Shown here in pieces: positions 17,582 to 23,193 of a DNA stretch of 64,000 nt. The notes beneath the pieces are model-generated. The model saw nothing but the letters and a program-made list of their open reading frames with translations. It did no database searches and was not told the origin of the DNA. The stretch covers positions 21,292-85,291 of the forward strand of contig CAZMFM010000005.1 of the NCBI GenBank assembly GCA_964565565.1, given 5' to 3'. Position numbers and translations under genes: made by a program. Origin of the DNA: an uncultured Spirochaetaceae bacterium. Lineage in GTDB: Bacteria > Myxococcota_A > UBA9160 > UBA4427. Numbering within the stretch: position 1 is the first letter of the stretch; each line of letters opens with the position of its first letter.

Positions 17582-20317
17582 GTGAAATCTCTTCTCTACG
17601 TCGTTTCGGAATTCTTCGATGGGCTGCTCGCCCGCGATCCCGTATGGGTGGCGGCCATTTCCGCCGCTCTGCTCGCGAACGCCATGACGACGCTCGGCCC
17701 CCTCGACCATACCAGCCGAGCACTCGACGATCTGTTGATCCGCCGCGCTCCGGTCGCGCTTCCAGCTGCCCGGGTCCTCCTCGTCGAGTTGCCGCCCGCT
17801 GTCATCACTGCACTGTCCGCCGCGGAGCACCCCGACAATCGCTCTGCAGTACTCGATCTGACCGCTGCGATCGAACGCCTTCGCGGGCTCGGCGCGCGAC
17901 AGATGGCCATCAACCTGATGCCCGAAAACGCATCAACCCTGATCGCCGACGCGCTGACACATGACGATGTCCTCTTCGGCCGACGCTTCTCGCCCAGCCC
18001 TGCCGGGGCGAAGAGTCGTCGCCTCGATGGCGTCCTCGAGTCGCTACCGGATGAGTACCGGCCGCTGTCGGATAGGACCGGCGTACTGACCAGCCCGGTC
18101 TTGGAGTTCGGCGTTGCGAGGAAAAGACGTCTCTTCAGCCAGGTCGGCAACGAAATCCTGCCAGCGCTCGAATCCCTCCTGGCATCCCGCTCAGGTGGAG
18201 AGGCGATGCCCTTTGACCGGGGCGCCATCCGGATCGACTTTCGCGGCGATGCTGATCGGCTTCCGATTCTCGACTTCGAACGCGTCCTATCCGGCGACGT
18301 GCTCGCAACCCTCGTCGAAGGTCGAGCGATCCTGATCGGTGCAGGATCAACGGCCTTCGAACCCGGCGTCGCGACACCACGCTCGCGAGACGGGGAATTG
18401 CTTTCCGTTCTCCAATACCGCGGATACGTGGTCGACACCTTGTTGCGCGGCACCCCACTCTCGCGATCGTGGCCGATCTCGACCGCTTTGATTGGCTGTG
18501 CTTCCTTGTTAGGCGCAGCGATCGGACGTGCATTTTCCCCACGAGCAGCCGTCGTCGCTTCAATCGGGGCGGGCTTCACGTACACCGTCGCGGCATGGCT
18601 GAGTCTCGGCCTCCTCGAATTCCATCTTCCCACCATCGAACTCATCACGGCACAACCCCTGGCCTGCGCCTTCGTCCTCGCTTCTCGCCATGTCGTCGAA
18701 CGCGGCGAACTTCGCCGCGCGGCGCGGCGAAGCACCGCGCTCGTCCGCGCCTTGCCGGAGCTACCCCACCCTCCGCCCGAGTCGAGTACGCCATGGCATC
18801 GACTCGCCCGACTGCTGAAGACGAGTGTTGGCTTCGAGCGTCTCCTACTACTCGAAGTCACCGCAAGGGGCGAACGGGCTCGAGAGGTCTATTGCGAGGG
18901 CTTTGAGACCGATCCGGATCGACTGCACGATCTAGCCGAAACGCCCTATGCGGAAATGATCCAGACGAATCTCGCTCGGGAACTCACGGAAAAATGCTTC
19001 GCGGCGAGCTCTCCCCGATCTGCCCAATTCCTGCTTCCACTCACGGACGGTGGCCGATGGCTCGGTTTCGGAATCGTCGAGCCGATCGGATACGGACCCG
19101 AATGTGAAACTGAAATGCTTCGCGCCCTTCGTGAAATCGCGCCCCTTTCGGGACGGCTCCTGGCACAGTGGCAAAGAACGCCTGACGGAGACGGGCTTCG
19201 ATCGAATCGCGCAGACCTCGGGCCCAACCGGAACGCAGGAGAGGGAGAGGCGAGACGACTCGAAGCCAACGCCCTGTCCCTCTATCGACGAATCGAAACC
19301 CTTCACAAGATCCTCGAAGACGGAAGTGTCGCCATCTCCGTCTTCGACCAGTCCGGATTCGTGCTGCAATCGAATCGGCGCATGAACACGATCGCGACTG
19401 AGTATGACATCGCCCTGGCGGACATCGATCCGTCCGAGTTCATCACACGACTCACTGGGTTCAAGCGCGAGCGGACGCAGACGATGGTCCGGCTCGTGCT
19501 CATGGAGGGCCGCAAGCACGTCATTGCGATTCGACCGGTAGGCGATCGCCAAACGAGAACCCTTCACCTCTTGCCGCTCAAGCGCCCGGTCGCCGAGGGC
19601 CCGGACCCTTCGCACCCCTTCCCGGTCCAGGGCATCCTGATCGAGATCATCGATGACGAAGTGGCTCATCAATACCATCGCCATCTCGCTCGCGTAGGAC
19701 CCATCGCCGAGCGCGCGAGTCTGGAGATCGACCGACTTGCCGCTTCGATCGACAAGCTCGCAGGTGAAATCGACTTCGATTCCTCAGCACTCGGCGGACT
19801 CGCGCAGTCCGCGGCCGAGGCCGTCGCGGCGCTTCGAAAAGATCTGGCCAACCCGCCCCAAGCCGGCATGACCGACCCCGCCTTGATCGAAGCCAGCGGC
19901 CCTCTCGAGCGCACCATCAAGCAACATTCAACGGAGTGTGCACGGCGTGGTATCGCGATCGTTTTCGACAAACCCGACCGGCCGGTCTTCGTCGAAACTC
20001 CGGAGGCTTCATTTCAGGATCTACTCGAGGCGAGCGTCTCGTTGCTCGTTCGCGATGCCATGGACTCGTCGACGCTGATCCTGCAAATCGTCGAAGGGCA
20101 AGATCAGATCGAGTTCGAGTTGCGCAATCAAGGCTATGGAATGCCCTCGAATATCCTGCGCAAGGGATTGTCCGAGATCGACGACGGGTCTCTGGCCGAC
20201 CTCACGCGAATTCGCCGGGCGCTACCGGATGTCGAAGCCGTCGGTGCCGACTTCACGATCAGCAGCGTGGTCGGTGACGGAATCTGCATCGGCCTCATCC
20301 TGCCGAGGGCGCTGTGA
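17582..20317 (+). CDS. Operon gene A: CHASE2-type membrane sensor with PAS-like region and degenerate histidine-kinase-like C-terminus
   Basis: 911 aa, GTG start. N-terminal TM, then a CHASE2-like ectodomain (VLLVELPPAVITAL ... AILIGAGSTAFEPGVATPRS ... LSVLQYRGYVVDTLL) and about 3 TM helices (aa 300-385). A PAS-like segment follows (ILEDGSVAISVFDQSGFVLQSNRRM). The end resembles an HATPase domain (IEFELRNQGYGMP ... SSVVGDGICIGLILP) but lacks clean N/G1/G2 boxes. Confidence 0.65.
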   Translation: MKSLLYVVSEFFDGLLARDPVWVAAISAALLANAMTTLGPLDHTSRALDDLLIRRAPVALPAARVLLVELPPAVITALSAAEHPDNRSAVLDLTAAIERLRGLGARQMAINLMPENASTLIADALTHDDVLFGRRFSPSPAGAKSRRLDGVLESLPDEYRPLSDRTGVLTSPVLEFGVARKRRLFSQVGNEILPALESLLASRSGGEAMPFDRGAIRIDFRGDADRLPILDFERVLSGDVLATLVEGRAILIGAGSTAFEPGVATPRSRDGELLSVLQYRGYVVDTLLRGTPLSRSWPISTALIGCASLLGAAIGRAFSPRAAVVASIGAGFTYTVAAWLSLGLLEFHLPTIELITAQPLACAFVLASRHVVERGELRRAARRSTALVRALPELPHPPPESSTPWHRLARLLKTSVGFERLLLLEVTARGERAREVYCEGFETDPDRLHDLAETPYAEMIQTNLARELTEKCFAASSPRSAQFLLPLTDGGRWLGFGIVEPIGYGPECETEMLRALREIAPLSGRLLAQWQRTPDGDGLRSNRADLGPNRNAGEGEARRLEANALSLYRRIETLHKILEDGSVAISVFDQSGFVLQSNRRMNTIATEYDIALADIDPSEFITRLTGFKRERTQTMVRLVLMEGRKHVIAIRPVGDRQTRTLHLLPLKRPVAEGPDPSHPFPVQGILIEIIDDEVAHQYHRHLARVGPIAERASLEIDRLAASIDKLAGEIDFDSSALGGLAQSAAEAVAALRKDLANPPQAGMTDPALIEASGPLERTIKQHSTECARRGIAIVFDKPDRPVFVETPEASFQDLLEASVSLLVRDAMDSSTLILQIVEGQDQIEFELRNQGYGMPSNILRKGLSEIDDGSLADLTRIRRALPDVEAVGADFTISSVVGDGICIGLILPRAL

Positions 20318-23193: not shown

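Follow-up and report, generated by a model that had tools for sequence, protein, structure and literature searches.

Two homologous CapC modules in a single polypeptide encoded in an operon with a PgsB-like ligase

The 64,000-nucleotide stretch of DNA analysed here (hereafter referred to as the window, with positions counted from its first letter) comes from an uncultured Spirochaetaceae bacterium. It carries seven open reading frames (ORFs) on the + strand (hereafter referred to as g1 to g7; 17582-34387), the stops and starts of which overlap throughout. The second of these, g2 (20314..23193, +), is the subject of this study. It encodes a protein of 959 amino acids (aa) that contains two homologous CapC modules within one chain, followed by a second internal tandem duplication (hereafter referred to as X1 and X2), in the order CapC repeat 1, linker helix, CapC repeat 2, X1 and X2. 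The start of g2 overlaps the stop of g1, and its own stop overlaps the start of g3. The tandem CapC module is conserved over hundreds of lineages, and the last gene of the operon, g7, encodes a PgsB/CapB-like amide ligase. We consider it reasonably probable (roughly 0.6) that a divergent polyamide synthetase of the PgsB/PgsC type, present mainly in double-membrane bacteria, has g2 as its inner-membrane subunit. The predicted product would most probably be poly-gamma-glutamate or a close relative of this polymer.

The two CapC modules of g2

A preliminary description of the window had proposed that the CapC/PgsC membrane module is duplicated in tandem at 20314-21400, a span corresponding to residues 1-362, the first third of g2. 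In a Pfam scan of the whole protein, two stretches matched the CapC family (PF14102; 136.7 bits, E 6.7e-40). When scanned separately, each half scored above the gathering cutoff of this family (27 bits), as the tandem interpretation predicted: 92.4 bits for residues 1-189 (E 3.6e-26; profile positions 1-117 of 119, domain at residues 26-160) and 59.1 bits for residues 190-369 (E 7.1e-16; profile positions 5-115 of 119, domain at about residues 217-333). Both halves of g2 are, thus, members of the CapC/PgsC domain family. The AlphaFold2 model of g2 (mean predicted local distance difference test score, pLDDT, 87.1; predicted template modelling score, pTM, 0.81) repeats one helix pattern at residues 20-183 and 206-361, each with six main helices and one short loop helix, and the proposed duplication is confirmed. 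CapC repeat 1 (20371..20862, +; residues 20-183) has its modelled helices at residues 20-38, 47-57, 59-85, 97-128, 143-154 and 158-183, and those of CapC repeat 2 (20929..21396, +; residues 206-361) are at residues 206-226, 231-244, 246-268, 279-304, 317-331 and 334-361. The inter-repeat linker (20863..20928, +; residues 184-205), which contains a conserved helix (residues 189-203), is the most conserved short segment of g2 (71% mean pairwise identity).

Direct comparison of the two halves, which had been suggested as a check, gave much weaker matches, as would be expected for an old duplication. BLASTP returned a single 22-residue match around the VPGYL/VPSLL helix (E 7e-5), and alignment of the family profiles of the two halves (120 homologues) with hhalign extended over 113 columns (E 2.8e-4, probability 41%). 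Restricting the profiles to the first three helices of each half gave an E value of 1.8e-5 and a probability of 78%. In a MAFFT alignment including pXO2 CapC and a Streptomyces PgsC, both halves were in register along the full CapC length, with shared columns at G, P, L, L, G, G, L and A. We also considered a three-helix sub-repeat inside each CapC (VPGYL versus VPGLIAN in canonical CapC), but this possibility was not supported, with hhalign probabilities below 3%. All 150 of the best representatives recovered in an exhaustive search covered query residues ~4-365 in one stretch, so the tandem is not a local fusion or an assembly error.

The assignment to PgsC made in the preliminary description holds for the domain family and not for the canonical protein. 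The whole of g2 scored 57.9 bits against the PgsC equivalog model TIGR04011, the cutoff for which is 96.45 bits, and the two halves scored 41.5 and 29.6 bits; on these scores, we classify g2 as a CapC domain family member rather than a PgsC equivalog. Sequence searches of the PDB with whole g2, g7, pXO2 CapC and pXO2 CapB retrieved nothing usable, and no solved structure of any CapC or CapB relative was found by sequence search.

The two copies differ in a consistent manner. The three motif pairs previously listed for them were all recovered, although the register given for the second was off by one residue: VVVPGYL (residues 45-51) in copy 1 corresponds to ILVPSLL (233-239) in copy 2, FGRDRFF (93-99) to EGARKLV (278-284), and FGL (141-143) to FGY (314-316). 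Alignment to pXO2 CapC and comparison across homologues showed copy 1 to be canonical-like, retaining VVPGYL, GR(D/R)(R/K)F, (R/K)...D and LxAN(Q), represented in g2 by VVPGYL, FGRDRFF, R109...D113 and LTANQLWKPG. These canonical motifs, and the canonical Asp (D113), are kept by copy 1 only. Copy 2 is diverged, with ILVPSLLALQWYQP, EGARKL, K294 and FGYGYLLSTLMAL as its characteristic segments; I/LxPSLLALQWYQP, EGARKL and FGYLLSTLMA are present in nearly all of the 120 homologues, and copy 2 has an invariant set of its own (IPSLLALQWYQP, EGARKL and K294). R109 and K294 constitute a conserved basic pair across the two repeats. In addition, each copy has an invariant intramembrane Glu, E68 (20515-20517) in repeat 1 and E255 (21076-21078) in repeat 2, and these two residues are aligned with each other by hhalign; neither pXO2 CapC nor Streptomyces PgsC has an acidic residue at this position.

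The CapC copies are the best-conserved parts of g2, with a mean pairwise identity of 65% for copy 1 and 64% for copy 2, versus 45-49% for X1 and X2; 66 columns of copy 1 and 55 of copy 2 are at least 90% conserved. This similarity in constraint bears on the possibility that copy 2 is a decayed relic, serving as a spacer or anchor for the C-terminal domains, with a single CapC as the functional unit, as in Bacillus. Copy 2 does have a lower score against PF14102 (59 versus 92 bits) and lacks the Gly-Tyr of VPGYL, the equivalent of D113 and the LxANQ motif, as a relic might. Nevertheless, it is as conserved as copy 1, possesses its own invariants, including E255 mirroring E68, and has been retained in all 150 best representatives and in the shorter, 853-aa variants of the protein (see below), and we consider decay to be the least probable of the explanations entertained here. 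The conservation pattern indicates an asymmetry between the copies that is old and maintained. Equal constraint on the two fits sub-functionalisation rather than decay, in agreement with the hint previously drawn from the absence of the Gly-Tyr pair in copy 2 (VPSLL).

Membrane topology and the peptidase-like domains

The second internal duplication occupies residues ~388-935 of g2 (21475-23118), for which no Pfam or PDB sequence match was obtained. X1 (21475..22293, +; residues ~388-660) consists of a helical lead-in and an alpha/beta core, and X2 (22333..23118, +; residues ~674-935) is the second copy, which is absent or diverged in the 853-aa variants. The family profiles of X1 and X2 aligned with each other with strong support (hhalign E 9.8e-24, probability 99.6%). 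Both are related to g4 (24002..24901, +; 299 aa), a secreted paralogue encoded two genes downstream of g2: hhalign gave E values of 8.9e-15 for g4 versus X1 and 1.9e-10 for g4 versus X2, and the clustering of neighbourhood proteins merged g4 with g2. No sequence profile of any known family matched X1, X2 or g4; g4 belongs to no Pfam family, and cultured Halomonas and Marinobacter have homologues of it that carry the annotation "hypothetical".

Structural comparison was more informative. The AlphaFold2 model of g4 (pLDDT 92) matched CCP5 (8v3p), the putative bacterial carboxypeptidases 3l2n, 2qvp and 3b2y, and Francisella REP34 (4oko) in Foldseek searches, together with the catalytic domain of DapE and a member of the N-formylglutamate amidohydrolase (FGase) family, 2odf (Atu2144). 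These matches had E values of 2.8e-5 to 1e-3 and probabilities of 0.96-1.0, but template modelling (TM) scores were low (0.26-0.47), and we take the matches to indicate a superfamily rather than a substrate. The viral predicted structures matched by g4 belonged to the same families, including zinc carboxypeptidase and FGase. With the whole g2 model, Foldseek retrieved Shewanella 3ieh, 2qvp and 3b2y (probability 0.87-0.98, E 0.07-0.24). On the basis of these matches and of their profile homology to g4, X1 and X2 have an M14/FGase-like alpha/beta fold. A more specific assignment of X1, X2 and g4 to the PghP-type poly-gamma-glutamate hydrolases (PF05908), suspected from a motif, was not supported, and we retain the statement at superfamily level: in Pfam searches, PF05908 did not match the window protein and matched only one of 31 g4 homologues, at E 0.096, the PDB profile search was empty, and no PghP was named among the viral fold matches.

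The residues H122, D126, R152, H193, H269 and E271 of g4 are invariant, and C229 and C293 are nearly so. The H-x3-D...H...H-x-E set occurs in the order expected for the metal site of the M14/FGase-like superfamily, and an N-terminal hydrophobic stretch is present in 38 of 42 g4 homologues; g4 may, therefore, be an active periplasmic enzyme, a metal-dependent amidohydrolase or carboxypeptidase. Neither X1 nor X2 has the metal-binding His/Asp(Glu)/His residues and catalytic Glu. In X1, the positions of H122, H193, H269 and E271 are occupied by L486 (Ala in the family), R550, E615 and T617, respectively; those of D126 and R152 have E490 and R516, which are retained, as is D525, aligned to another g4-invariant position. 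In X2, R773, E777 and Q843 (the last of these at a position variable in the family) occupy the positions of H122, D126 and H193, and the residues corresponding to H269 and E271 are non-catalytic in the consensus of the family. Because metal-ligand and catalytic positions are substituted in both, X1 and X2 are probably not enzymes.

The orientation of these domains was addressed by counting lysine and arginine residues (K+R) in the loops of 120 homologues. The mean K+R per loop was 3.7 for residues 77-97, 2.0 for 155-160, 3.6 for 268-282 and 3.8 for 327-339, and the N-terminus of g2 contained none. In a 12-pass model with six passes per repeat, parallel repeats and both ends outside, in which helices 41-57/59-76 and 232-244/246-267 form hairpins, K+R amounts to 15.4 inside versus 5.4 outside. 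This distribution favours 12 passes and parallel repeats, with X1 and X2, and the inter-repeat linker, in the periplasm, all inferred from charge bias alone. A periplasmic location of X1-X2 would agree with the signal peptides of g3, g4 and g5 and with the N-terminal hydrophobic stretch of the g4 homologues. The preliminary description had envisaged a covalent pseudo-dimer, an arrangement that requires the two repeats to have the same orientation, and it is this orientation that the positive-inside analysis favours.

If helices 47-85 and 231-268 are instead treated as single kinked passes, each repeat has five passes and the two repeats become antiparallel. Many secondary transporters contain inverted repeats of this type, and g2 might then be a transporter or receptor of peptides (gamma-glutamyl or other); its peptidase-like domains would bind the substrate, and it would have no part in a synthase. 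In M14 enzymes, aligned Arg/Asp positions may hold the substrate carboxylate. The retention in X1 of R516 and D525, aligned to g4-invariant residues, would suit such a binding role, and the operon does open with a sensor protein. However, in the inverted model, the two loops of repeat 2 that are richest in K/R lie outside, with K+R values of 9.3 inside and 10.5 outside, and the conserved last gene of the operon encodes a PgsB-family ligase, often fused to its HEAT neighbour, which points to synthesis rather than uptake. An inverted transporter or receptor is, on this evidence, quite improbable.

The g1-g7 operon and its distribution

The 710-aa product of the ligase gene g7 (32255..34387, +) has a hydrophobic helix at its N-terminus and a GTRGKS P-loop; its ligase core spans residues 29-371, and a further ~340 aa form an uncharacterised extension. 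It was recognised by NCBIfam only, with no Pfam match: residues 29-371 matched the PgsB model TIGR04012 with an E value of 6.5e-58 and a score of 196.3 bits, below the equivalog cutoff of 222.7 bits. BLASTP alignment with pXO2 CapB gave 28% identity over 330 aa (E 2e-31), and the aligned region takes in the hydrophobic helix at the N-terminus as well as the G(T/I)RGKS P-loop. A PgsB/CapB-family ligase, as expected of a PgsBC-type synthetase, is thus encoded in the same operon as the CapC protein. The partnership with PgsB anticipated in the preliminary description is found at the level of the operon and not as adjacency, g7 starting 9062 nt after the g2 stop. Many g7 homologues are fused to HEAT repeats at the N-terminus (1100-1200 aa, with HEAT domains on record), which provides a Rosetta-stone link between g7 and the HEAT-repeat gene g6. 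Azoarcus sp. CIB has an apparent g6-g7 fusion (locus L085, 10001-13279), the 380-aa N-terminal part of which has no HEAT profile match.

The other genes of the operon are less easily assigned. The first, g1 (17582..20317, +; 911 aa), has an N-terminal CHASE2-like sensor domain (PF05226, E 2.8e-7) and a C-terminal half matching no profile. In other genomes, a small response regulator is encoded between the sensor and the CapC gene (L001, 9377-9766; L086, 3351-3740); the window has none at this place, where g1 and g2 overlap directly. The product of g3 (23190..24005, +; 271 aa) has an N-terminal signal or anchor helix and corresponds to the first ~250 residues of a protein of ~825 aa usual at this position in most genomes. 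The giant protein g5 (24877..30225, +; 1782 aa) has a signal peptide, its C-terminal part carries a conserved GRGxRDF...F..LR motif, and it had no family match in Pfam or NCBIfam. A C-terminal motif of the approximate form GRG(Y/F)RDF(R)PGE..F..LR.R is common to g5 homologues of 1700-2060 aa. The gene preceding the ligase, g6 (30222..32258, +; 678 aa), encodes HEAT repeats (PF13646) and no signal peptide. No family could be assigned to g3, g5 or the g7 extension, and g6 matched only HEAT repeats. The genes flanking the operon are ordinary metabolic ones that related loci do not share: a P450, a TetR regulator and a sulfotransferase upstream (14257-17245), and a beta-lactamase-family protein downstream (34905-36224).

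The survey for long CapC proteins proposed in the preliminary description revealed a large family. A word-indexed search returned 1412 clusters at 90% identity, nearly all of them full length and about 1080 aa long, some named "PgsC/CapC" by NCBI or JGI and others "hypothetical". An exhaustive phmmer search with residues 1-372 against 1.84 billion representatives gave 675 matches at E≤1e-3 and 534 at E≤1e-30, the tandem module being a constant feature of at least 534 clusters defined at 50% identity. At least 390 encoding loci were found with one genome scanned per GTDB species, that is, at least 390 species. Lineages and neighbours were recorded for the best 80 of these 390 loci, many of which are truncated. 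They belong to Gamma- and Zetaproteobacteria, Desulfobacterota-type lineages, Magnetococcales, Planctomycetia and a Campylobacteraceae metagenome-assembled genome (MAG); Legionella londiniensis and one Magnetococcales strain are the only cultured isolates among the best 80. The closest relative of the window among the loci kept is a Myxococcales MAG (75% identity).

Counterparts of g1 were present in 62 of the 80 loci, of g3 in 68, of g4 in 49, of g5 in 52-54 and of g6 in 44. In most loci, g7 fell outside the 10-kb flank. Its position beside the HEAT gene was confirmed on an Arenicellales chromosome, in Azoarcus sp. CIB (the apparent fusion) and in two genomes with a compact operon, and also in the Myxococcales MAG and a Desulfobacteraceae MAG. 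The compact variant (L086, 721-12160; L087, 818-12169) encodes a sensor, a response regulator, an 853-aa protein with two CapC modules, proteins of 267 and 287 aa, a HEAT protein and the ligase, and has no g5. Its 853-aa g2 aligns only to residues 4-627 of the g2 studied here, which identifies the two CapC modules together with X1 as the constant core. The clade of the window has further peculiarities, namely the shortened g3 (271 aa) and a g2 without the C-terminal tail of ~115-140 aa present in most family members (compare 23119-23193). Neither a tandem CapC nor the g1-g7 operon was described in the literature searched, and the arrangement of g2 and g7 is widespread, automatically annotated and apparently undescribed. 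The "CapC" mentions in a paper on the lipocone refer to the "CapCone", which is unrelated.

Proposed function and comparison with known systems

We propose the following mechanism for the putative synthetase. Each CapC unit would cross the membrane six times, with both ends outside, and the two units would be neighbours with matching orientation, forming a covalent pseudo-heterodimer, with copy 1 in the ancestral CapC role beside the ligase and copy 2 as a specialised, obligatory partner. The K/R-rich loops (77-97, 155-160, 268-282 and 327-339) would be cytoplasmic, and it is on this side that g7, with the HEAT protein g6, would add residues at the expense of ATP. The growing chain would move through or along the CapC pair to the periplasmic side, where the two catalytically dead M14-like domains would receive it as holders or a scaffold. 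The secreted and putatively active paralogue g4 would trim or release the polymer, which g3 and, where present, the giant g5 would carry onward, the whole system being regulated by the CHASE2-type sensor g1.

Several observations weigh against this proposal or parts of it. The second parts of the two CapC halves show weak direct similarity in the hhalign comparison. The topology is based on charge bias only. Neither PgsA/CapA nor PgsE/CapE was detected in any operon protein with Pfam and NCBIfam, these searches leaving room for a very diverged or analogous protein. The absence of g5 from the compact variant implies that this protein is not essential to the core mechanism. In the HEAT-ligase fusion, a single hydrophobic helix (residues 383-401 in Azoarcus sp. 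CIB) separates two apparently cytoplasmic parts, and is thus a poor fit to a simple transmembrane anchor. Finally, the polymer may not be poly-gamma-glutamate, because both g2 (57.9 versus 96.45 bits) and g7 (196.3 versus 222.7 bits) score below the equivalog cutoffs.

These low scores and the failure to detect PgsA are also compatible with the recruitment of CapC- and PgsB-like proteins to other chemistry, such as the ligation or remodelling of gamma-glutamyl peptides of the envelope (the peptidoglycan stem), with the peptidase-like domains docking on the wall. Several of the structural neighbours of g4 and the X domains (CCP5, DapE and MpaA, the last at rank 32) act on gamma-glutamyl or wall-related substrates. 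No operon protein matches peptidoglycan enzymes, however, the alignment of g7 with CapB spans the entire catalytic core, P-loop included, and TM-scores as low as those of the fold matches speak for a superfamily and not for a substrate. We therefore consider such a recruitment unlikely.

Extending the interpretation of g2 as a synthetase subunit, we can tentatively go further, with clearly less than even odds, and envisage a previously unrecognised envelope-spanning machine that would make and export a polyamide (poly-gamma-glutamate or another amino-acid polymer), in which a covalent CapC heterodimer would form the inner-membrane conduit, two dead carboxypeptidase-like domains would be the periplasmic holders and g4 would set length or release. 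If this is true, PgsC, which stands alone in Bacillus, would be expected to function there as a dimer. The conserved natural CapC-CapC fusion hints that the working membrane unit holds two CapC modules with different roles, and this hint bears on the assembly of PgsB, PgsC and PgsA and on the passage of poly-gamma-glutamate through the membrane. The family also gives access to a polymer system of double-membrane bacteria that is uncharacterised and spans at least 390 species; among cultured organisms, Legionella londiniensis and Azoarcus sp. CIB carry the CapC protein or genes of the operon. If a polyanionic polymer is made, the system would bear on the capsule and biofilm biology of sulfur-oxidising symbionts, methanotrophs, iron oxidisers and sulfate reducers, and might be a source of new enzymes for polyamide production.

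The closest known counterpart is the PgsBCA(E)/CapBCA(D)E poly-gamma-glutamate synthetase of Bacillus subtilis and B. anthracis (pXO2). In the canonical system, PgsB is described as the amide ligase of the PgsBCAE membrane complex (PMC3815933), and CapB and CapC are the sole mandatory parts in CapsuleFinder (PMC5542703); neither of these publications describes a tandem CapC. The operon described here shares with the Bacillus system the CapC fold family, with PF14102 in both halves of g2, and a ligase of the PgsB/CapB family that has the G(T/I)RGKS P-loop and a hydrophobic helix at its N-terminus. Copy 1 keeps the VVPGYL, GRxxF, basic...Asp and LxAN features of Bacillus CapC. By contrast, Bacillus (pXO2) CapC is a stand-alone protein of 148-149 aa encoded directly after capB, whereas g2 has two CapC units in 959 aa, with ~590 extra residues, and is not a canonical PgsC/CapC of about 150 aa whose gene follows pgsB/capB directly. 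The ligase gene lies ~9 kb from the CapC gene and its product has the ~340-aa extension, unlike that of Bacillus. The PgsA/CapA, PgsE/CapE and CapD of Bacillus were not detected in the g1-g7 operon; g1, g3, g4, g5 and g6 have no Bacillus counterpart; both g2 and g7 fall below the equivalog cutoffs of canonical PgsC and PgsB; and neither of the two canonical CapC/PgsC sequences in the alignment has an acidic residue where g2 has the intramembrane E68 and E255.

PgsB-PgsC pairs of other phyla, such as that of a Streptomyces plasmid locus (L083) and that of Fusobacterium nucleatum (PMC3815933), likewise have a PgsB and CapC core without the full Bacillus accessory set. They differ from the operon studied here in having one small PgsC directly after pgsB, and no tandem CapC, dead peptidase pair or HEAT partner. 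The M14/FGase enzymes (CCP5, 8v3p; 3l2n, 2qvp, 3b2y and 3ieh; REP34, 4oko; Atu2144, 2odf) have the alpha/beta fold in common with g4 and, via g4, with X1 and X2. Unlike these enzymes, X1 and X2 are without the histidines; the similarity is limited to TM-scores of 0.26-0.49, and no known-family profile matches.

A last parallel is provided by the SWEET and SemiSWEET proteins, in which a small membrane unit occurs alone in some organisms and as two diverged copies in one chain in others. Such fused pairs are usually read as a sign that the small unit works as a dimer. By analogy only, with no homology between these proteins and CapC, the fusion in g2 would suggest that stand-alone CapC, too, may act as a dimer.

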